Source: Dictyostelium discoideum (lineage: Eukaryota). Taken from it: a stretch of 64,000 bases of DNA. The stretch covers positions 4,896,001-4,960,000 of the forward strand of contig CM000153.2 of assembly GCA_000004695.1 (NCBI GenBank). The letters are read 5' to 3'. Every line of letters starts with the position of its first letter. The stretch's first letter is position 1. Below are positions 15,744-31,076 of the stretch, one piece after another. The notes below the pieces were generated by a model. That model worked only from the letters and a program-made list of their open reading frames with translations. It ran no database searches and was not told the origin of the DNA. A program made the translations under genes and the position numbers.

Positions 15744-17372
15744 ATGATTGATATCGATAATTCAAATTTATTTTTTAAAATTTTTAGAAATAAATTTTTA
15801 AGAAATCAAATTTTTAAACATTTAAGAAAATTTAATATTTGTCCAAGACTAGTAAAATATAATAGTATTAAACGATTTAAAGAGTGTAAATTTAAAGGTT
15901 ATTTATCAAATGTTTATTACAATTTCAAAGGATTTGAATATTTACCAAATTCAGTTAAATTTTTAAAATTGGGTGATAATTTTTGGACATCAAATTTATT
16001 TATTTTGGAATTAAATAAATTGAAAAATTTTTTACCACAATCATTAACACATTTGGAACTTTCAAATTCATTTTCAAGATATTCAAAATTGAATGGACGT
16101 TCATTCATACCAGAATCAGTTACAAAATTAAATATTGGTGATGGTTTCAATAGAATTATAAGATCTGATGATATACCATTAACTTTAAAATCATTAAAAA
16201 TTGGTAAAACATTTAAAAATTCATTAAATTTAATTGATTGTAAAAATTTAGAAAATTTAGAATTTGTCGAAGAATCACATTTTAATAATATTTTTAATAA
16301 TGATTCGAATAATTTACCACAAAATTTAAAATATTTAAAATTTGGTAATTTATATACAATGGAAATAAAAAATGTTGAATTAAATTTACCAAAAACATTA
16401 ACATATTTATCATTTGGAAGTGGATTTAATTCACCAATTAATTTACAATCATTAATAAATTTAAAAAGTTTAACATTTGAATCAAATTATAAATGTAAAT
16501 TTAGTGTTGGATCATTACCATCAAGTTTAACATACCTTTCAATTAATGGATATGAAAAAGATTTTGAAATTGGTGTATTACCATCAAATTTACAAACTTT
16601 AATTATTAAAAGTTATACTATAACAACTAAACAAAAATTTGAAATTGGTGTATTACCATCATCAATTACAAATTTCACTTTTAATAATCACTATAATACA
16701 TTACATCCATTCCAAAGTGGCGTATTACCATCATCATTGACAAGTTTAGATTTATCTTATTATGAACATCCAATTGATAATTTAATTCTACCATCATCTT
16801 TAACATATTTAGAATTACCAAATAAAGAAGAAAGTAATAAAAGTTGCATTTTGTTAAAACTATTTTCAAATTTAATAAATTTAAAAAGTTTAGTTTGGAA
16901 TTGTAAAGATAAAATACCTCCAAATATATTACCCAAATCATTGTCACAATTTAAAATTATAAATATTAAATATTATCATAAATTTGAATTGGATACTTTC
17001 CCAAGTTCACTTTTATCTCTTTTAATTAATTCACATAATTGCCATGGTTTTGAAGATGGCATTTTACCACAATCATTAAAAAAACTTGAATTAGTTAGTC
17101 ACCTATTTAAAACTCAATTTCAATTAAATTCAATTCCCAAAAATTTAGAAATATTATCACTTTCATATACATCATACCATTATGGATTTAAGAAAAATGA
17201 ACTCCCTACAACTTTAAAACATCTGTCTTTGCCTGAATATTATTCACATTTTATTGATTGTGATTTACCAAATTTGGAATCATTATATATTGGAAAGCGT
17301 TCAGTTGATACTAAATTAAGAAATATAGCTTCAGAAATTGAAGATATTAGTTTTATAAATTTATTTGAATAA
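15744..17372 (+). CDS. FNIP-repeat-containing protein, a Dictyostelium-expanded family.
   Basis: ATG at 15744. The frame is a single 542-codon ORF. A unit of about 22 aa recurs more than 15 times: LP.SLT.L.FG..FN..I..G.LP.SL..L. Confidence 0.8.
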   Translation: MIDIDNSNLFFKIFRNKFLRNQIFKHLRKFNICPRLVKYNSIKRFKECKFKGYLSNVYYNFKGFEYLPNSVKFLKLGDNFWTSNLFILELNKLKNFLPQSLTHLELSNSFSRYSKLNGRSFIPESVTKLNIGDGFNRIIRSDDIPLTLKSLKIGKTFKNSLNLIDCKNLENLEFVEESHFNNIFNNDSNNLPQNLKYLKFGNLYTMEIKNVELNLPKTLTYLSFGSGFNSPINLQSLINLKSLTFESNYKCKFSVGSLPSSLTYLSINGYEKDFEIGVLPSNLQTLIIKSYTITTKQKFEIGVLPSSITNFTFNNHYNTLHPFQSGVLPSSLTSLDLSYYEHPIDNLILPSSLTYLELPNKEESNKSCILLKLFSNLINLKSLVWNCKDKIPPNILPKSLSQFKIINIKYYHKFELDTFPSSLLSLLINSHNCHGFEDGILPQSLKKLELVSHLFKTQFQLNSIPKNLEILSLSYTSYHYGFKKNELPTTLKHLSLPEYYSHFIDCDLPNLESLYIGKRSVDTKLRNIASEIEDISFINLFE

Positions 17373-18734: not shown

Positions 18735-19994
18735 ATGAATATTATTAAAATCATTTTTTCATTATCTTTATTAATGATGATGATTTCATCAAGTATTGGT
18801 CAAGGTCAAGGTCAATATTTAAGAATGGATGTATTTGGTGATGACCAATGTAGTAGAGAAACTGTTTATAGTACCAAATGGACTAAATTAAATTTTTGTA
18901 ATGGTCAATTTGTTTATAGATATGTTCCAAATTTAGGTGATGGTAGTAGTACAACAACCACTGGTAATCCATTAACAACTGCAGGTACATTAAGCTCTGT
19001 CGATATCACTTCAATTGTTACTCAAGCTGTTACTCTTGGTATGAGTGGTGCTGGTGGTTTAACCAATTCTGGTCTTTTATCAATTGGTGCTTTAAATGTT
19101 GATAATTTAGTTGACGCAGCTGCTTCACAAAGTGATAATCAAAATAGTGGTACCACTTCACAATCACCATTACCAACATCCGATCCTATCTCATCAGCCA
19201 CTACCACCACTACCATTACCAATAATCCAACAACTACTTCATCATCAATTTTAACCAATTCCGGTTTATTAACAATTGGTGGTACTACTGTTTCAGCAGT
19301 TACTGATTTCGTTACCAGTCTTATTTCATCATCATTAACAAATATTGTTACTACTGGTAATGGTGGTGCCACTACATCAGTTCAAGGTGCTATGGGTAAT
19401 GTTGTTCTATATTATTGTCTTAGTGCTTCAGGTTGTCTTACTCAATGTGTTAGTTTACAAAGTTCACCAGTTGGAATTTGTACAAAGAATAAATTAGATA
19501 ATGTTGTTTACTCTGTTGTTAATGGTACTGATATGATCGTAAAGATTGATAATACCACTAATCCAGGTCCAAACAATGGTTATTGTCAATCCTTTACTTC
19601 TCCATCCGCTTGTGTAACTGATAATAATGAATTAACTCAATATATGAATAATCAATGTGGTAAAGGTATTAAAATCAATTGTACAAGTTCAGTTTACAAT
19701 TCATATAGCTGTGTTGATTCAAGTTGTTTACAATGTTCAAAAATCAGTTCATATCCATTAAATCAATGTAATTTAATAAATTCAACCAGTGGTGTAATGT
19801 TTAAATCATTATTAAAAACTCCAATCACTGAAGAACCAACTCCACTTCCATATTCGTCTTCCTCATCAACTAATGATACTGATTCATCTCAACAATCAAG
19901 TAATTCAAATAATTCATTTTATAATAATAATAATAATAATAATATGATTACAATTATCATCTTCTCCATTTTTTTCATTATTTCAATGATTTAA
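18735..19994 (+). CDS. Secreted or cell-surface Ser/Thr-rich, Cys-rich glycoprotein-like protein.
   Basis: N-terminal signal peptide MNIIKIIFSLSLLMMMISSSIGQ. Ser/Thr/Gly-rich middle. About 16 Cys in the C-terminal third. Hydrophobic C-terminal tail IIIFSIFFIISMI, consistent with a GPI anchor signal. Confidence 0.55.
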   Translation: MNIIKIIFSLSLLMMMISSSIGQGQGQYLRMDVFGDDQCSRETVYSTKWTKLNFCNGQFVYRYVPNLGDGSSTTTTGNPLTTAGTLSSVDITSIVTQAVTLGMSGAGGLTNSGLLSIGALNVDNLVDAAASQSDNQNSGTTSQSPLPTSDPISSATTTTTITNNPTTTSSSILTNSGLLTIGGTTVSAVTDFVTSLISSSLTNIVTTGNGGATTSVQGAMGNVVLYYCLSASGCLTQCVSLQSSPVGICTKNKLDNVVYSVVNGTDMIVKIDNTTNPGPNNGYCQSFTSPSACVTDNNELTQYMNNQCGKGIKINCTSSVYNSYSCVDSSCLQCSKISSYPLNQCNLINSTSGVMFKSLLKTPITEEPTPLPYSSSSSTNDTDSSQQSSNSNNSFYNNNNNNNMITIIIFSIFFIISMI

Positions 19995-21744: not shown

Positions 21745-22277
21745 TTTTTTTATTATTTTTTTTTTTTAATTTTTATTTTTATTTTTATTTTTATTTATTG
21801 TTTCTTAACAAATTCAAACTTTGTTTTTTTTAATATTTATTCAATTATTAATGAAGAGAAATAAAAAATTAAATAAATAAAAAAAATAATAAAAGATAAT
21901 CCCCAAAAAAAAAAAATTCTTTTCAAAAAAAAAAAAAAAATAAAAAAAAATGGCTGGTGTTTTTGTGTGTTTTTGTGTGTTTTTTTTCTTTTTTAAATAA
22001 TCAAAAAAAATTTTAAATTATTTAATTATTATTATTTTGTGGTTAATTTTTTTAAATTTTTTTTTTTTTCCTTAACACTATTTTTTAATTAATAAAAAAT
22101 AAAAAAAAAAACTTTTTTAAATTTTTTATTACTGTTCTAATTATTACTCATATAGTTTTATTGAATCTTTATTTGAAGATTATTCATAAAAAGTAACAAA
22201 TAAATAATAAAAAAAAATTACAAATAAGATAAAAAATATAATTTCAAATTAATTAAAATAATAAGTTAATTAAAAAA
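21745..22277. promoter_or_regulatory. Divergent intergenic region, presumably a shared promoter, between the P450 (minus) and the IucA/IucC gene (plus).
   Basis: 533-bp AT-rich spacer between two divergently oriented start codons. It contains a GT-rich element, tggctggtgtttttgtgtgtttttgtgtg, at ~21951-21980. Confidence 0.3.
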
Positions 22278-24365
22278 ATGGAATTTACAAACTATAAATA
22301 TTTTAACCAAGTTTTTGAATATATCACAAAAAACTATCAAAATAAAACAAATGATTTTTTAAAAAATTTAAAAAATTCAGAAAATGAAACATTTAATAAA
22401 TTACTAGTTTCAATAATTAGGGAAAAACTATTACCATTTATTAATGATGAAATAAATTTAAAAGAAAATCAAACAAATAATTTTAAATTTAATTGTGGTG
22501 ATAATAGTATTAAAGAAATTAGTTTTGAAATTGAAAAAGTTTTTGGATTTTCATTTTTTACATTTAAAAAACCAATATATTATAATTATTACACTGAAAG
22601 AAATCAAACAATTTTAAATTCAACATTAGAATTAATTGAAATTTTAAAACAGAATCCATCATTTAATGATATTGAAGTATTTAAAAGTGAAATTGTAAAT
22701 AGTATTACCAATATGGCATTAATTACAACACTATGTTCTGATGATTTAAATAAAATCAAAAAATTATCAATTGAAAATAATTGGAATTATTTATCAGATT
22801 ATGTCGATGCCCAATTTAAAAAAGATAAAACATTTGATAAATTTTTATTTTATGATCAAATTCATCTTAGTGGTCATCATATTCATCCAAGTTTTAAATT
22901 AAGGTTAGGTTTAAATCATAAACAAGTAATTCAATACTCTTATGAATTAAAAAAAGAAATACCAATTAGATTCATTGGTTTAAATAAATCAGTGGCAAGA
23001 TTTGATATGATCAATGATGGTGATGGTAATGGTGATGGTAATGGTGATGATAATCCAACAAGTTATTTTTTTAAATTATTTCCAAATTTAAAAGAATTAA
23101 TAATAAATTACTTTAAAGTAAATCAAGGATTAAATATTGATAATTATATTATTTATCCAATGTTTCCATATCAAATAACTGATACATTTCCAATACAATT
23201 TAAAAATGAAATTGAAAATAAAGAATTAATAATTATACCAGAGGAATTATATTCAATTAAATCATTTCAAACTTCATCATTAAGGAATTTAATACCAGTA
23301 ATTGAAAATAATAATAACCCACCACATATTAAATTTTCAGTACCAATTCAAACTACAAATTTCGTTAGATTTATGCCAAATGATTTTATACCAGTTGGTA
23401 CATCAGTTTCAAAAATTTTAAAAAGAATTAAAGAAATTGAATTTGAAAATTTTAATAATAAAATTGTATTTTTAAATGAAATTGGTGGAATTTATCATAA
23501 AAATGATACAGAATTAAAATATCAAAATTTTGCAATAATATGGAAAGAAAATACAAATTTATTTTTAAAATCAAATGATGATCATCCAATTAGTTCTTGT
23601 TCATTATTTAATCAATCACCAATTTGTGAATCTTCAAAATTACAAACAATTTTGGGTGAAATTATTAAAAAATATAATGAATTTAATATAAGTAGTAGTA
23701 GTAGTAGTACTATTATTTCCAATGATGATATTGATCATGATGGTTTTAAAAATTCAATTTTAAATTGGTTTAAATTATATTGTAAATTATTAATTGAACC
23801 AAGTTTAATTTTATTAACAAAGTATGGTATTTCATTAGAATCTCATTTACAAAATTCAGTTTATGTTTATGTTAAAGGTGAACCAAAATTATTAATTTTA
23901 AAAGATTGGTCTGGTATTGTAATTAAAATGGATAGAATTTTAAAACATAAGCAATTAATTGGTGAAAACTTAATAAACTCAATTCCAAAGTTAATTCAAT
24001 TATCAGATTTAGAATTTTATAAAATGTTTTCACATTCAATTTTACATAATCATATTTGTCAAATTATAATTGGAATTTGTAAAGAATTTCCAAATCATAT
24101 TACAGAGACTCAATTATGGTTTGAATGTTATCAAATAATGAAAAATACTTTTAATTTAATTAATAATCAAGATATTAGTAGTAATGGTAGTGGTGGTAGT
24201 GATAGTGGTAGTGGTGGTACTTTTAAGAATGATATTGAAAATGATGAAAATGAATTATTTAAAAAAGAATTAAAAGTTAAAGCACTTACTGGAATGAGAT
24301 TATTAACAAAAAATCAAATTTTATTACCATTTAATGTTAAAAATCCTTTAAATCAATTTATTTAA
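22278..24365 (+). CDS. IucA/IucC-family NRPS-independent siderophore (NIS) synthetase-like protein. Intronless.
   Basis: Single 695-codon ORF from ATG. LSGHHIHPSFKLRLG matches the GHP-HP-K-R-G motif of the IucA/IucC N-terminal domain. ESHLQNSVYVYVKGEPKLLILKDWSG matches the E-H-QN...(R/K)D catalytic region of NIS synthetases. The call rests on these motifs alone. Confidence 0.7.
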   Translation: MEFTNYKYFNQVFEYITKNYQNKTNDFLKNLKNSENETFNKLLVSIIREKLLPFINDEINLKENQTNNFKFNCGDNSIKEISFEIEKVFGFSFFTFKKPIYYNYYTERNQTILNSTLELIEILKQNPSFNDIEVFKSEIVNSITNMALITTLCSDDLNKIKKLSIENNWNYLSDYVDAQFKKDKTFDKFLFYDQIHLSGHHIHPSFKLRLGLNHKQVIQYSYELKKEIPIRFIGLNKSVARFDMINDGDGNGDGNGDDNPTSYFFKLFPNLKELIINYFKVNQGLNIDNYIIYPMFPYQITDTFPIQFKNEIENKELIIIPEELYSIKSFQTSSLRNLIPVIENNNNPPHIKFSVPIQTTNFVRFMPNDFIPVGTSVSKILKRIKEIEFENFNNKIVFLNEIGGIYHKNDTELKYQNFAIIWKENTNLFLKSNDDHPISSCSLFNQSPICESSKLQTILGEIIKKYNEFNISSSSSSTIISNDDIDHDGFKNSILNWFKLYCKLLIEPSLILLTKYGISLESHLQNSVYVYVKGEPKLLILKDWSGIVIKMDRILKHKQLIGENLINSIPKLIQLSDLEFYKMFSHSILHNHICQIIIGICKEFPNHITETQLWFECYQIMKNTFNLINNQDISSNGSGGSDSGSGGTFKNDIENDENELFKKELKVKALTGMRLLTKNQILLPFNVKNPLNQFI

Positions 24366-28313: not shown

Positions 28314-29001
28314 ATGATAAATATTTATCAAAGTAATAATAGTATATCAAATAGTAGTGCAGATGAAAATGAAGAATTATCTTTTTCAGAAAATGAAGAT
28401 AATAATATAATAATAAATGGTGAAAATAATAATTTAATAAAAAATTCACACCAATCATCATCTTCTTCAAATCTAATGTTCTCTGGTAGTGAAAATTATA
28501 TGATAGTTAGTAGAGTTTTATCAGATAATAGTTTATTCATAATGGAAAATGACATTGAAAATAAAGATAATATAATTAATAATAATAAAAATAATAATAG
28601 TAATAATAATGTTAATATAGAAACATATGATAAAATTGATACACCAGGGAATGATATTAATGGTGATAAAGAAATTAATGATATTAATATACCAGATGAA
28701 AATGAAAGAAATTCACCATCAAATACAAGTCCATTATTATCTTCATCATCATCTCAACCACAACAACCACAACAACAGCCAAATTATAAAGGATATACAA
28801 ATCTAACACCTACTCACTCAGATTCAGAAGATTCTTATGATGAAATTGATACTTACGATAATATGTATATTGAACAACTTAAACATAGTAAACCAATTAA
28901 TATAAGGAATAGTAGTGATGATTTTGAAACAATTGAAATTAAAACTGAATTTAAAGATAATAATAATTATGATGATTATGATGATGAACAATTAAATGAT
29001 A

Positions 29002-29039
<38 letters not shown>

Positions 29040-30363
29040 ATTCATAATAATAATAATAATTTAAATTCAATATCTAGTAATTCAATATCACCACCAACAG
29101 TATCACCATTTAAAATACTCTTAACAAATAAATTAAAATCGATTAAAGATAAAATTGAAAATTCACCAAATAGTGATAAATATAATACATTTCCAATGGA
29201 TAGATATAACAATATACCGAGTAGTGATATTTCATTATTTTCATCTTCTCCTGCGTATGATATTGTAGTTTTAAATACAAATCAATCATTAACTTTAACA
29301 ACAACCTCAACAACCTCAAATAATTGTAACAACAGTAATAATAATAATAATAATAATGGTAATCATAGTAATAGTAATAGTATTGGAAGTAATAGTAGTT
29401 TAAATAGTGGTATTAATTCAATATTAAGTACATCATCTATGACACCATCAAATTCGAGTCATTTTCATGATAATAATAATAAAAATAATATAACTACTGA
29501 TGGTGAAAGTGAAACATCATTTGAAACCGATAGTCAAATTAGTAGTAAAGCTTTGGATGGCGCAGGTGGTGAGACAATATTTGATACACCTCACCATAAT
29601 CATCATCATAATCATCACCATCATAGTCATCATATTATTCATCATGAACTTCATCAGAATCCAAATGGTAAAACCATTTTGTATAGTAATCCAAATTTAA
29701 TAAGATATAATTCAAATTCTTCAATCACAAGACCAGTATTATCATATGAAAGAACCAAACTAAACTATAAGATATTGTCATTACTATCATTGTCAGTGTT
29801 TTTCTCAGTCAGTAATTTATATTATGCTCAACCATTACTTAATGAATTTGTTAAGGAATTCAATATATCAAATAGTGTAGCATCATTAATTACAATGGCA
29901 GTTCAACTTGGTTATGCATTGGGTTTGTCACTCATTTCAATTCTTGGTGATTCAATGTCAAAGAAAAAGTTAACATTGGTTCTATCATTAATAACCTGTG
30001 GTTCTTTATTTGGTATTGCCACTTCACCACATATCATATCGGTAATTATCTTTCATTTCATAGTTGGAGCATCAACCATCATTCCATACATTGCAATTCC
30101 TTTGGCAATGGATATGACCAATCCATCAGATCGTAGTAGTATCGTTGGCGTTTTATTATCTTCAGTTTTCGTTGGATTATTAGGTGCACGTGTCCTATCT
30201 GGTGTAATTGGTTATCTATTTGGTTGGAGAACTGTATTTTATTTTGCTGGTGTAACAATGTTTATTATTTCTTCATTATTATTTTATTTTTTACCATATA
30301 CTCCAAGTAAGTTTTAAAAATAATTATTAGTAGTATTTTATTTAAATTAAATTAAATACTAAT

Positions 30364-30422
<59 letters not shown>

Positions 30423-31076
30423 AAAGGAAATCAAAATACTATGCCATATAATAAATTATTAATATCAGTTTATGAATTTTTAAAAAAAGAAAAAGTATTA
30501 AGACAAACTTGTTTTATTGGATCAATGGTATTTTCAACATTTTCAATACTTTGGACAACATTATCATTTAGATTGAATGAAGAACCCTATGAATATCCAT
30601 GTGCATTCATTGGTTTATTTGGTTTAATTGGTATGGCAGGTGCAATTTCTTCCCCATTATCTGGTAGATTGGCTGAAAGATTTGGTATAAATAGATTGAT
30701 GATAGTTTATTTATTAATTTGTGCAGTTGGTTATTTAATTTTAATGTTTTTCGATTATCATATCATTGGTTTAATTGTTGGTATTTTCATATTGGATTTA
30801 GGTGTTCAATCATGTCATATTAGTAATCAATCAAGAAATAATCTTTTATCCTCCTCCTTACAAGATGATACTTCAAAATATAATATCAATACAATTTATA
30901 TGGCTTCTTATTTCATTGGTGGAAGTATTGGTTCTGGTTTATCTGGTGTCATTTTTGCTCATTTTGGTTGGGCTGGCTCTTCAATAGTAGCACTTTTATT
31001 CCTAAGTCTTGGTTTAATTTGTCATTTAATAACTTATGAAAAACCAACATTTATTTCAGTTCCAATTGAAGATTAA
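28314..31076 (+). CDS. MFS-type transporter with a long Asn/Ser-rich N-terminal extension and a His-rich cluster. Exons 28314..30306 and 30427..31076; intron 30307..30426.
   Basis: Exon 1 ends with 5-6 TM helices (...LGARVLSGVIGYLFGWRTVFYFAGV...) at a GTAAGT donor. The acceptor lies after a T55 run and restores the frame to another 6 helices (...FIGLFGLIGMAGAISSPLSGRLAERFG...), giving a 12-TM MFS layout. HHNHHHNHHHHSHHIIHHELH at ~29580-29650 precedes TM1. Confidence 0.8.

Follow-up and report, generated by a model that had tools for sequence, protein, structure and literature searches.

The gene and its surroundings

On the forward strand of the window, the 64-kb stretch of Dictyostelium discoideum DNA analysed here, positions 22278..24365 hold an unbroken single-exon reading frame that begins with an ATG at 22278, ends with a stop codon closing at 24365 and encodes 695 residues. 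The ORF itself, its GC3, an AlphaFold2 (AF2) model, Foldseek matches and identity to a known AX4 protein together mark it as a complete coding sequence for a predicted NRPS-independent siderophore (NIS; IucA/IucC-family) synthetase. That AX4 protein is DDB_G0286821 (XP_637654.1, EAL64166.1, UniProt Q54LA7), matched at 100% identity over 100% of its length, and the single-exon reading thus agrees with the public gene model. Databases label the protein “hypothetical” or “uncharacterized”, and no biochemical, genetic or expression data on it were found in the searchable literature. A 533-bp intergenic region of 10.5% GC (21745..22277) separates the gene from a divergent cytochrome P450 gene; it is presumed to be the promoter region, and no regulatory element was identified in it. 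By tblastn, the 64-kb window contains one NIS copy.

The gene has a GC content of 19.9% overall and a GC3 of 6.3%, its flanks are 4-10% GC and its codon usage is fully amoebal. Three low-complexity inserts lie in the protein. The first, D-G-D-G-N-G-D-G-N-G-D-D-N (aa 247-259; 23016..23054, +), forms a predicted surface loop (pLDDT <50 at 249-256) that is missing from aligned bacterial homologues, with a gap in AsbB and SbnC, and differs in length among D. discoideum strains. The others are host-type loops, one poly-Ser (aa 472-478; 23691..23711, +; low pLDDT at 481-484 just downstream) and one Gly/Ser-rich, N-G-S-G-G-S-D-S-G-S-G-G (aa 636-647; 24183..24218, +; pLDDT <50 at 638-645). The divergent P450-NIS pair is kept in D. 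cf. discoideum, D. dimigraforme and D. firmibasis and is not found in D. purpureum, where the NIS gene neighbours a GNAT gene instead of the P450 gene of the D. discoideum group. In four further group-4 assemblies, on Mb-scale contigs in three and a 283-kb contig in the fourth, the gene has the same place between the same eukaryotic neighbours.

Given a protein family that is mostly prokaryotic, one might suspect bacterial contamination or an assembly artefact. We give this practically no chance: it is ruled out by the GC content of the gene and its flanks, the Dictyostelium-type inserts, the same place among the same neighbours in four other assemblies, a spliceosomal-type intron of 72-74 nt in both Heterostelium copies and a best bacterial identity of ~25-31%. 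Codons, flanks, synteny and the Heterostelium intron show that the gene is truly integrated in the amoeba genome. Moreover, the ORF is uninterrupted in each of five group-4 assemblies, and a dN/dS of 0.19-0.33 indicates purifying selection; DDB_G0286821 is a genuine gene that evolution has kept undamaged in social amoebae.

An earlier note, made from the letters of the window, had taken the lack of introns, said to set the gene apart from almost every neighbour, as fitting horizontal transfer. The gene is indeed intronless, but the contrast with its neighbours does not hold: at the syntenic D. cf. discoideum locus three of nine complete neighbour gene models are intronless (span versus CDS length), and the two matching ORFs in the window (15744..17372 and 18735..19994) have no interruption either. 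Because of these neighbours, and because the Heterostelium orthologues carry a short intron, intronlessness is weak evidence for transfer.

The family assignment made in the same note is confirmed by Pfam, where the IucA_IucC domain (aa 189-445; 22842..23612, +) is matched at E=4.4e-52 with 177.5 bits (cutoff 25) over profile positions 2-239 of 239, and the FhuF-like region (aa 497-622; 23766..24143, +) at E=3.7e-12 with 47.4 bits (cutoff 25.2); both scores are far above chance. Rather than a separate reductase, the FhuF-like region makes up the C-terminal portion of the NIS palm domain. This IucA_IucC plus FhuF architecture is common to all bacterial relatives examined, and fungal NIS enzymes and the rhizoferrin synthetases have it as well (PMC8070225). 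The hand-shaped NIS fold has been described as thumb, finger and palm (PMC9356276), and the region 5′ of the IucA_IucC domain (aa 1-185; 22278..22832, +), confidently modelled by AF2 as a helix/β-sheet/helix unit, would by model and alignment be the thumb. These residues also align to N-terminal parts of bacterial homologues, and aa 27-635 align to positions 31-590 of the FslA model, N-terminal region included.

The AF2 model as a whole has a pLDDT of 90.3 and a pTM of 0.92, and in a Foldseek search of the PDB the top 50 matches listed are all NIS synthetases, with target-normalised TM scores of 0.74-0.82. A family profile ranks AsbB first in the PDB (3.3e-78), followed by SbnC, IucC, DfoC, AlcC, DesD, AcsD and IucA. 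Judged by family and predicted fold, DDB_G0286821 encodes a full-length NIS synthetase.

Active-site and specificity residues

The NIS motifs previously read from the 695-residue ORF are all present, and so are the ATP-binding Arg, Lys and His residues whose conservation the note had asked about, mapped here through published work on the family (PMC9356276, PMC3323832). The GHHIHPSFKLRLG motif spans aa 199-211 and begins with G199-H-H-I-H203-P-S-F-K207 (22872..22898, +), in which one His aligns with the adenine-stacking His153 of DesD (PMC9356276); alignment suggests H200 or H203 as its exact equivalent, and K207 is family-invariant. Next in order is P-M-F296-P-Y-Q (23157..23174, +), the counterpart of a near-invariant P-V-H-P-W-Q. 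The His of this motif is Phe296 in DDB_G0286821 and Tyr in D. purpureum; all other sequences inspected keep it, among them those of Heterostelium and the other dictyostelid paralogues. In S333-S334-L-R336-N (23274..23288, +), S334 and R336 align with the phosphate-binding pairs S275/R277 of DesD and S279/R281 of AcsD (PMC9356276). The segment H-I-K352-F-S-V-P-I-Q-T-T360-N361-F-V-R364 (23325..23369, +) supplies K352, aligned with DesD K291, and R364, aligned with the catalytic Arg of AcsD (R305) and DesD (R303) (PMC9356276).

In the C-terminal half the best match is AcsD (achromobactin, type A, PDB 2W02; 4.5e-09), although its overall similarity is weaker than that of AsbB. A direct phmmer alignment to AcsD (2w02_A) places E521-S-H523-L-Q525-N526 (23838..23855, +) on the general base E442, which touches citrate, on H444 (H440 of DesD) and on the phosphate/Mg2+ ligands Q446 and N447 (PMC3323832, PMC9356276). 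D543 in L-K-D543-W-S545-G (23898..23915, +) corresponds to the Mg2+-binding D464 of AcsD and D460 of DesD, all five AcsD residues being identical and in register; S545 is also present in the Silvanigrella-type bacterial group. Near the C-terminus lies K668-A-L-T-G-M-R674 (24279..24299, +), with a family-invariant R674. Conservation and motif similarity make K668 the probable equivalent of AcsD K563, which forms a salt bridge to citrate; the comparison is by likeness to ‘VAC-K-TNLKVRL’, translated from the K563A primer (PMC3323832), instead of by direct alignment. The Arg by which AcsD recognises the carboxylate of serine, R501, is replaced by Met583; AcsD thus gives no guide to the nucleophile, which must be a different one.

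The universal NIS ATP/Mg2+ list comprises DesD S275, R277, K291, R303, R370, H440, E/Q442, N443 and D460 plus the adenine-stacking His (PMC9356276). All of these but DesD R370 were mapped; H200/H203, K207, S334, R336, K352, R364, H523, Q525, N526 and D543 are all kept, and the mapped ATP/Mg2+ and general-base residues are conserved across deep divergence.

The residues expected to contact the acid substrate are compatible with citrate. AcsD T301-N302-x-x-R305 is matched by T360-N361-F-V-R364, giving the citrate-compatible Thr-Asn pair, where SbnC has Leu-Gly and DfoC Met-Gly. In AcsD N302 hydrogen-bonds citrate, and the Met or Leu of DesD (M299) and SbnC (L288) would clash with it (PMC9356276). 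At the E521 position IucC has Ile and DfoC Met. Three residues of the type A set (AcsD T301, N302 and E442) are matched by T360, N361 and E521, with R576 left without an assigned equivalent, and K668 is common to the SfaB/SfaD, Bacillaceae and Silvanigrella clades. Of the two kinds of acid earlier proposed, citrate-type residues are present and the succinate type is disfavoured by the specificity residues. Since the Thr is found in the type C enzymes AsbB and IucC too, these positions cannot separate free citrate from citryl derivatives, but we infer from them that citrate would supply the acid moiety.

The loss of the near-invariant His at position 296, the retrieval of D. citrinum proteins that include no orthologue of DDB_G0286821 and an annotation that goes no further than hypothetical or uncharacterized could also be read as signs of a decaying relic or dead pseudo-enzyme, kept by chance or for a non-catalytic role. 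Such a relic is very improbable, since it would have to have kept an intact ORF in five assemblies, a dN/dS of 0.19-0.33, every mapped ATP/Mg2+ and general-base residue and a confidently predicted fold. The residue-level case for an active enzyme is new.

The dictyostelid family and its origin

NIS genes are found across Dictyostelium, Heterostelium and Cavenderia, and the encoded proteins form one clade (bootstrap 98-100). Copy sets differ among species: D. citrinum has a divergent pair adjoining a lipocalin gene, and Heterostelium and Cavenderia have tandem copies. The D. citrinum proteins retrieved are this other paralogue pair, without an orthologue of DDB_G0286821, so lineage-specific loss occurs in the family. 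In other dictyostelid paralogues K668 is replaced by Tyr, Phe or Pro. The D. purpureum orthologue is modelled as DICPUDRAFT_50166.

Outside Dictyostelia the nearest homologues are prokaryotic NIS synthetases and not members of an ordinary eukaryotic family, as the bacterial-type reading had predicted. The closest, at ~25-31% identity, are staphyloferrin A/rhizoferrin-type synthetases of soil Bacillaceae and of a Silvanigrella MAG, and the nearest named relatives are SfaB/SfaD and paired NIS operons of Gottfriedia, Fictibacillus, Halobacillus and others (~25% identity, tblastn E to 1e-61). SfaB/SfaD-type enzymes and DDB_G0286821 have in common a T/E/K/R signature at the specificity positions and a preference for the FslA model; staphyloferrin A-type chemistry joins citrate to ornithine or a diamine (PMC7857480). 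The gene order is NIS-NIS-MFS_3-PLP decarboxylase-FTR1 in Gottfriedia and an sfaABC/sfaD layout in S. caprae, and in Silvanigrella a single NIS gene lies beside a FecCD/ABC importer; these nearest bacterial loci are polycarboxylate-siderophore operons. In the bacterial pairs, two distinct NIS genes are accompanied by one for an MFS_3 exporter and one for a racemase or decarboxylase of the PLP type; the D. discoideum locus has a single copy and no such partners. The bacterial partner clades have 81-99% bootstrap and the dictyostelid clade falls inside none of them; in S. caprae, for example, the clades of SfaD-like (99%) and SfaB-like (98%) sequences leave out the dictyostelid clade (100%).

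Our trees are neighbour-joining (NJ) trees on Kimura distances, computed on a set without fungal sequences, FslA, LbtA or Rfs and without full-length AcsD, IucA, AsbA and SbnE. All identified neighbours of the dictyostelid clade in them are prokaryotic. The phylogeny called for in the earlier note thus recovers a monophyletic dictyostelid clade (98-100%) among bacterial sequences, but does not point to a donor: the bacterial sister node has 43-50% bootstrap and the NJ backbone is unresolved. Among the best 150 relatives in a library of 1.84 billion proteins, those with names, a minority, are all dictyostelid or prokaryotic, and no fungal protein was found among the ones looked up. The description of the family as overwhelmingly bacterial needs qualifying, as fungal NIS enzymes (Rfs, making rhizoferrin) are conserved in Mucoromycota (PMC8070225).

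We propose that an NIS gene of prokaryotic and most probably bacterial origin was captured once, before Cavenderia, Heterostelium and Dictyostelium split, and that duplication and differential loss would have followed. Adaptation to the host since then would account for the AT-rich codons, the low-complexity loop inserts and the Heterostelium intron. An improbable alternative has no direct transfer from bacterium to amoeba and an origin shared with fungal Rfs, either vertical from early Amorphea with losses or by transfer between eukaryotes. Early-diverging fungi do keep an IucA_IucC plus FhuF NIS enzyme whose tree largely tracks the fungal species tree (PMC8070225), the amoebal gene would be older than the dictyostelid radiation, and the trees here have no fungal sequence and a weak bacterial sister node (43-50%). 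The named minority of the best 150 relatives, dictyostelid or prokaryotic and in no case fungal, argues instead for a prokaryotic source, and two genome papers place the family inside a bacterial clade (PMC3188802).

Indeed, the bacterial origin of this family in Dictyostelium has already been published, as the earlier note had suspected, and the finding is right yet largely known. Table 2 of Sucgang et al. 2011 carries over from the 2005 genome paper (Eichinger et al.) an IucA_IucC entry, ‘siderophore synthesis’, function unknown, among horizontal transfer candidates that the two papers describe as embedded in a bacterial clade (PMC3188802). The entry is DDB_G0294004, with ‘no model’ in D. 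purpureum (PMC3188802). Since this identifier is not DDB_G0286821, for which a D. purpureum model exists, the published entry may be a second locus. Papers and databases already record the gene and its probable descent from bacteria, and these parts of our analysis are confirmation and not discovery. The published list places the transfers no more precisely than before the group-4 radiation (PMC3188802); what is new is the deeper date, before the dictyostelid radiation, the recognition of a dictyostelid NIS gene family with differential loss and the affinity of that family to polycarboxylate (staphyloferrin A/rhizoferrin-type) synthetases.

Proposed chemistry and product

Rhizoferrin synthetases include FslA/FigA of Francisella, LbtA of Legionella, the Ralstonia pickettii NIS enzyme and the fungal Rfs of Rhizopus and Mucor; rhizoferrin itself has an m/z of 437.2 (PMC7857480). 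Among curated models the FslA model (NCBIfam NF041038) scores best with DDB_G0286821, at 129.5 bits over nearly its full length against an equivalog cutoff of 1000 bits; other dictyostelid members score 91-155 bits on it and all near relatives also prefer it. DDB_G0286821 stands alone, as do the NIS genes of R. pickettii, Legionella and fungi, where one enzyme yields dicitryl-putrescine (PMC7857480). Unlike in the LbtB/FigB and FigC systems, neither a linked MFS exporter nor a decarboxylase was found in the 64-kb window; the search there for pathway partners (PLP decarboxylase, racemase, dedicated exporter, N-hydroxylase) found none. For the MFS gene 4 kb away (28314..31076), comparison with an MFS_3 exporter of bacterial siderophores gave E=0.34, and the two are unrelated. 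One NIS enzyme suffices for symmetric dicitryl-diamines (PMC7857480), and a locus with one NIS gene therefore makes a rhizoferrin-like product the likeliest.

By analogy with these systems, the enzyme would most likely form citryl amides in an ATP-dependent reaction, the product being a polycarboxylate chelator akin to rhizoferrin. As in other family members, Mg-ATP would be held between two His residues and the Ser, Arg, Lys, Gln, Asn and Asp ligands, and a carboxyl group of citrate would be adenylated to citryl-AMP. Glu521, as general base, would then aid attack of an amine on the adenylate, releasing AMP and forming the citryl amide. The amine would likely be a diamine (putrescine or 1,3-diaminopropane) or a basic amino acid (ornithine or lysine), and the product a rhizoferrin-like α-hydroxycarboxylate metal chelator. 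Catalytic activity, the choice of amine and a link to iron are each inferred here from relatives. The account as a whole, in which a functional NIS synthetase acquired once from a prokaryote ligates citrate to an amine to give a rhizoferrin-like product, is in our judgement reasonably probable.

The closest solved structure is AsbB (petrobactin, type C, PDB 3TO3; 5.6e-17 with the single sequence), which by fold is matched at a Foldseek E of 1e-28 and a TM of 0.80 with ~15-16% identity in the structural alignment. AsbB, SbnC, IucC and DfoC all rank ahead of the type A enzymes AcsD and IucA in the PDB. Because AsbB is a type C enzyme, a citrate derivative instead of free citrate is possible as the substrate. 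AsbB, which acts on citryl-spermidine-type acids, has in common with DDB_G0286821 the E-S-H-x-Q-N motif and a Thr aligned with AcsD T301, but has Glu in place of K668, and in the tree it groups with IucC and DfoC apart from the dictyostelid clade (97%).

The likeness to AsbB is one reason to consider an active enzyme of the same chemistry put to another use, making a citryl or other acyl amide or ester that is no iron carrier, or else acting on a citrate derivative in the manner of type C enzymes; the product may be a polyamine conjugate, a metabolite of development or defence, or a compound taken from prey and modified. The absence of linked transporter, decarboxylase and reductase partners would fit this, as would a neighbour that changes from the P450 gene of the D. 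discoideum group to a GNAT gene in D. purpureum, the lineage-specific His296Phe change and the loss of K668 in other dictyostelid paralogues, which suggests substrate diversification in the family; nor is a Dictyostelium siderophore described in the iron-homeostasis literature examined. We nevertheless find such repurposing rather unlikely, as near relatives with readable context all lie in iron-acquisition loci and the T-N/E/K signature fits citrate-using enzymes. There is, moreover, a eukaryotic precedent in Rfs, an NIS enzyme with the same domains that makes a true siderophore (PMC8070225, PMC7857480).

Tentatively, and as a proposal that may well prove wrong, we suggest that a bacterial enzyme captured long ago lets social amoebae produce a polycarboxylate siderophore or metallophore of their own that resembles rhizoferrin. 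Siderophore synthesis is viewed as a bacterial and fungal trait, and Dictyostelium is a leading model of the competition for iron between phagocytes and pathogens (Nramp1, Legionella, Francisella, Mycobacterium). The Dictyostelium iron reviews examined make no mention of a chelator made by the amoeba. Should DDB_G0286821 prove to make a chelator from citrate, an extra component would be needed in models of host iron withholding and acquisition, and a chelator-based layer would be added to iron handling in a professional phagocyte. Such a compound could serve to scavenge iron in soil, to compete with or starve prey and intracellular bacteria, or to distribute iron during multicellular development. 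The lineage-specific paralogue sets, with a single gene in D. discoideum and other sets elsewhere, would then imply lineage-specific chelator chemistry.

Gene model, fold and constraint

DDB_G0286821 is a bona fide, constrained and host-adapted member of the NIS synthetase family, of prokaryotic ancestry. Its ORF runs uninterrupted on the + strand from the ATG at 22278 to the end of the stop codon at 24365 and encodes 695 aa. Over its full length the protein matches XP_637654.1/EAL64166.1/UniProt Q54LA7 at 100% identity, an entry named in the databases 'hypothetical protein DDB_G0286821 [Dictyostelium discoideum AX4]', so the public model is likewise a single exon. With tblastn, we found one NIS copy in the window. 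The entire window is extremely AT-rich; the ORF has a GC content of 19.9% (6.3% at third codon positions) and is flanked by DNA of 10.5% GC upstream and 3.8% GC downstream.

The protein matches the full Pfam IucA_IucC profile at aa 189-445 (E=4.4e-52) and FhuF at aa 497-622 (E=3.7e-12), the two domains for which the earlier note had proposed a search. Together with the ORF and the single-exon public model, these matches bear out its reading of an intronless 695-aa NIS gene. The top NCBIfam model is FslA (rhizoferrin biosynthesis protein), which aligns over nearly its full length at 129.5 bits, far below its 1000-bit cutoff, followed by SbnF and SbnC. Among PDB sequences, a single-protein search matches AsbB (5.6e-17), SbnC (7CBB), AcsD and IucC, and a family profile ranks AsbB first (3.3e-78), then SbnC, IucC, DfoC, NcdF, AlcC, DesD, AcsD and IucA. 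An AlphaFold model built on a shallow dictyostelid-only alignment (pLDDT 48) was discarded; with a 28-sequence alignment the mean pLDDT rose to 90.3 and the pTM to 0.92. Foldseek returned 56 PDB matches at E<=0.001 for the latter model, and all 50 of the matches listed are NIS synthetases, headed by AsbB (E=1e-28, target-normalised TM 0.80).

The low-confidence loops of the model (aa 249-256, 481-484 and 638-645) lie in or beside Dictyostelium-type low-complexity inserts. These are DGDGNGDGNGDDN (window 23016-23054, + strand), itself of low model confidence, a poly-Ser insert adjoining aa 481-484, and NGSGGSDSGSGG around aa 638-645. The DGDGNGDGNGDDN loop differs in length and sequence among D. 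discoideum strains, with protein lengths of 689, 694, 695 and 702 aa, a typical triplet-repeat instability within a bacterial-type enzyme.

Orthologues in D. cf. discoideum (87% identity), D. dimigraforme (76%), D. firmibasis (73%) and D. purpureum (60%) are all single uninterrupted ORFs. Nei-Gojobori dN/dS is 0.19-0.33 in each of ten pairs (10/10), over a dS range of 0.13-1.4, which indicates that the gene is under purifying selection.

Active site and candidate product

In DesD, the ligands of the ATP phosphates common to all NIS types are S275, R277, K291, R303, R370, H440, E442, N443 and D460, and the adenine is sandwiched by H153 and H440 (PMC9356276); in AcsD, E442 is the general base and R305 and H444 are essential (PMC3323832). 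Using a phmmer alignment to AcsD chain 2w02_A to carry over the literature numbering, we found that E521, H523, Q525, N526 and D543 align with AcsD E442, H444, Q446, N447 and D464. S334, R336, K352, R364, H200/H203 and K207 are nearly or fully invariant in the family alignments and are all kept in the amoeba protein. By alignment, then, the ATP-site Arg, Lys and His residues whose conservation the earlier note wanted checked are present (R336, R364, K207, K352, H200/H203 and H523).

Citrate recognition by AcsD involves a hydrogen bond from N302 and a salt bridge from K563, and needs a small residue at T301, where the Met or Leu of DesD and SbnC would clash with citrate (PMC9356276). T360-N361-F-V-R364 of the amoeba protein is in register with AcsD T301-N302-x-x-R305, and K668 is kept in a K-x5-R-L motif resembling the K563 region; from a primer-derived AcsD peptide alone, we infer that K668 would be the equivalent of K563. 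In our alignment the T-N position is Leu-Gly in SbnC and Met-Gly in DfoC, the E521-type Glu is missing from IucC and DfoC, and AsbB carries Glu at the K668 position. The T, E, K, R signature is common to the amoeba protein and the SfaB/SfaD-like, Bacillaceae and Silvanigrella sequences. In AcsD the serine carboxylate is recognised by R501; the amoeba protein has Met583 at that position.

One near-invariant residue is altered. At window 23157-23174 (aa 294-299), the His of the 'P-V-H-P-W-Q' motif is replaced by Phe296, a change shared with D. cf. discoideum, D. dimigraforme and D. firmibasis; D. purpureum has Tyr. Position 296 is His in Heterostelium, the other dictyostelid paralogues and every bacterial sequence inspected.

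By homology, the enzyme would bind Mg-ATP, adenylate a carboxylate and then, as AMP leaves, pass the acyl group on to an amine, the two-step chemistry described for NIS enzymes (PMC9356276, PMC3323832). Citrate is the likely acid substrate, judging from the T-N / E / K signature and the operons of the relatives. A single NIS enzyme suffices for symmetric dicitryl-diamines such as rhizoferrin, and asymmetric amino-acid bridges require two NIS enzymes or a fused pair (PMC7857480). A rhizoferrin-like product would be favoured, as no more than one gene turned up in D. discoideum. Putrescine, 1,3-diaminopropane and spermidine are abundant in this organism. The fungal rhizoferrin synthetase Rfs accepts both 1,3-diaminopropane and putrescine (PMC7857480). 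The testable question posed is whether social amoebae make a citrate-based chelator of their own.

The dictyostelid family and its prokaryotic relatives

HMMER, run exhaustively on 1.84 billion representative proteins, gave 421 relatives at E<=1e-3, with identity falling to 22-34% past the close orthologues (39% for one short fragment). Word-indexed protein searches returned dictyostelid proteins only, their candidate lists being filled by low-complexity Dictyostelium words. The named relatives outside the dictyostelids are bacterial or archaeal (Alkalihalophilus, Paenisporosarcina, Bacillus spongiae, Metabacillus, Mammaliicoccus, a Patescibacteria MAG and Natrialba), joined by fused double-NIS proteins from compost metagenomes and a JGI cluster annotated 'D-ornithine-citrate ligase'. 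As the earlier note had supposed, the nearest named relatives outside the dictyostelids are thus prokaryotic NIS proteins and not an ordinary eukaryotic family. A pattern scan of 185,579 species genomes, using two peptide patterns from a seven-sequence alignment, gave 77 loci, nearly all from Bacillaceae and their relatives (~25% identity, E down to 1e-61), the others including a Silvanigrella MAG (31%), two Planctomycetota MAGs, Staphylococcus/Mammaliicoccus and Amycolatopsis; the patterns are biased towards Bacillaceae-like sequences, so this taxon list is no unbiased census.

The near relatives whose gene context can be interpreted lie in iron-acquisition loci of several layouts. In Gottfriedia, two NIS genes are accompanied by an MFS_3 exporter, an Orn/DAP-type PLP decarboxylase and an FTR1 iron permease; in Silvanigrella, a lone NIS gene adjoins a FecCD/ABC importer. 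In S. caprae, MFS_3, NIS and alanine-racemase-fold genes lie on one strand, together with a divergent second NIS gene and a periplasmic-binding-protein gene, the staphyloferrin A (sfaABC/sfaD-hts) layout of S. aureus. FslA is the best model for all near relatives (179-253 bits for bacterial and 91-155 for amoebal proteins, none reaching the cutoff), and the family has its affinity with the synthetases of citrate-(di)amine-citrate polycarboxylate siderophores. In many bacterial relatives two tandem NIS domains share one polypeptide of 1065-1324 aa (proteins P0009, P0012, P0054, P0077, P0084, P0091, P0113, P0135 and P0137; loci L073, L080 (Amycolatopsis)), an architecture like that described for the corynebactin synthetase CiuE (PMC7857480). 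Their N- and C-terminal halves form two separate clades, both well supported (85% and 96%).

In a neighbour-joining tree of 161 NIS domains, 14 sequences form one dictyostelid clade with 98% bootstrap support, which rose to 100% in a larger tree that also took in four PDB fragments and, from named bacterial loci, 65 NIS ORFs. Cluster look-ups identify 11 of the 14 as named dictyostelid proteins: the D. discoideum-type orthologues, two divergent D. citrinum paralogues, and the tandem pairs PPL_11284 and PPL_11285 of Heterostelium album and DFA_12326 and DFA_12327 of Cavenderia fasciculata. The other three come from one EukProt species and have Dictyostelium-like composition. All dictyostelid paralogues descend from a single event, and because this clade spans Cavenderia, Heterostelium and Dictyostelium, acquisition predates the split of these lineages, earlier than the 'before the group-4 radiation' of Sucgang et al. 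2011 (PMC3188802). The Bacillaceae operon partners (99% and 81%), SfaD-like (99%), SfaB-like (98%) and type C structural reference (97%) sequences form clades of their own, none of which contains the dictyostelids. Joint transfer of both NIS genes of a bacterial operon was rejected, since the operon partners fall into two separate bacterial clades and the dictyostelid paralogues into one.

On the horizontal transfer suggested in the earlier note, the trees show one dictyostelid clade whose named neighbours are all prokaryotic, with a poorly supported sister group. In the larger tree it is Silvanigrella plus four metagenomic sequences (43%), and in the smaller tree two fused proteins (50%). NIS enzymes are also conserved in Mucoromycota (PMC8070225), and these distance trees contain no fungal sequence; with no supported sister group, a eukaryote-level origin shared with the fungal enzymes is a formal but improbable alternative, every named neighbour of the dictyostelid clade being prokaryotic. 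These neighbours, together with the published assessment (PMC3188802), support a bacterial origin. That the gene is no contaminant follows from its codon usage and host-type inserts, from its synteny on large contigs and from the intron in Heterostelium. The absence of introns, read in the earlier note as a sign of transfer, is real for this ORF but adds little to the question of origin, as three of nine neighbouring models are also intronless and the Heterostelium copies carry an intron.

That intron is AT-rich, 72-74 nt long and at the same site in each copy, directly before the GHHIHP motif. The genomic DNA encodes the full E-x-H-x-Q-N motif, which the annotated protein models splice out; PPL_11284 and PPL_11285 (locus L002, 10001-12404 and 13407-16270) lack the catalytic Y-G-I-A-L-E-S-H-L-Q-N-S segment. 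The genes appear to consist of two exons and one intron, with mis-spliced public models. A reading of PPL_11284 as intronless, from a continuous tblastn HSP, was wrong, as this HSP crosses three in-frame stops of the short intron. Cavenderia DFA_12326 (P0015, 1576 aa) has a long C-terminal region after its NIS domain and the UniRef name 'EGF-like domain-containing protein', and the EukProt-species protein P0010 (1043 aa) has ~385 N-terminal residues outside its NIS domain; both extra regions are probably merged gene models and not true fusions.

The D. citrinum NIS genes (locus L004 7640-13828, GCA_054859325.1, JBTAPL010000041.1; also L005 1944-8753) are divergently transcribed ~313 bp apart and encode 682 and 693 aa, both with IucA_IucC and FhuF domains and sharing only ~30% identity with DDB_G0286821. 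Asymmetric siderophores typically go with a two-NIS layout. A lipocalin gene (181 aa, PF00061/PF08212) adjoins the pair; mammalian lipocalins bind siderophores. Protein searches recovered neither a D. discoideum counterpart of the pair nor a D. citrinum orthologue of DDB_G0286821, which suggests differential loss of old paralogues among dictyostelids.

The earlier note's suspicion of a prior listing proved correct. IucA_IucC ('siderophore synthesis', function unknown) is among the 16 remaining HGT candidates in Table 2 of Sucgang et al. 2011, first proposed in the 2005 genome paper (PMC3188802). The finding is therefore little new, since the gene's existence and likely HGT origin are already recorded at the family level. 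The listed ID is DDB_G0294004, with 'no model' in D. purpureum (PMC3188802), whereas the window's DDB_G0286821 has the D. purpureum model DICPUDRAFT_50166; the published entry may thus be a second IucA/IucC locus in AX4, which might be a pseudogene, lie on an unplaced contig or be related to the D. citrinum pair. In the searchable literature we found no mention of DDB_G0286821, Q54LA7 or XP_637654 and none of NIS enzymes linked to Amoebozoa; some Dictyostelium metal and immunity papers name siderophores solely as bacterial products.

Gene neighbourhood

The gene order of the window, FNIP-repeat gene, two unknown genes, P450 (-), NIS (+), unknown (-) and histone H2A-like gene, is kept in D. cf. 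discoideum, D. dimigraforme and D. firmibasis. The cytochrome P450 gene (20757-21744, - strand, at least one intron) is divergent from the NIS gene across a 533-bp spacer of 10.5% GC. This pair, kept in the same three species, is absent in D. purpureum and so is probably not a functional cluster. An MFS transporter gene of two ORFs and one intron (28314-31076, + strand) has a ~490-aa, partly low-complexity N-terminal extension ahead of its MFS domain, and it did not specifically resemble the MFS_3 exporter encoded in bacterial NIS operons (E=0.34). A conserved P450, NIS and MFS biosynthetic cluster was rejected, as the P450 pairing is limited to the D. discoideum-firmibasis group, the MFS protein is unrelated to the exporter and the other window genes are ordinary. 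Those encoding a FAD_binding_1/NAD_binding_1 flavoprotein fragment (cytochrome-P450-reductase-like; 41868-42881, - strand), a RhoGAP-RasGEF-GlfB_C multidomain protein (50627-55538, - strand) and a 3-beta-HSD/epimerase-family protein (60039-61022, - strand) are ordinary eukaryotic genes with no evident NIS link, and no tRNA genes were found in the window.

The D. purpureum NIS gene has different neighbours, a dynactin-5-like gene upstream and a GNAT acetyltransferase gene downstream. The latter (172 aa, PF00583; locus L001 12218-12791) directly follows the NIS orthologue on the same strand, with no equivalent at the matching position of the D. discoideum window; acetyltransferases figure in some siderophore pathways.
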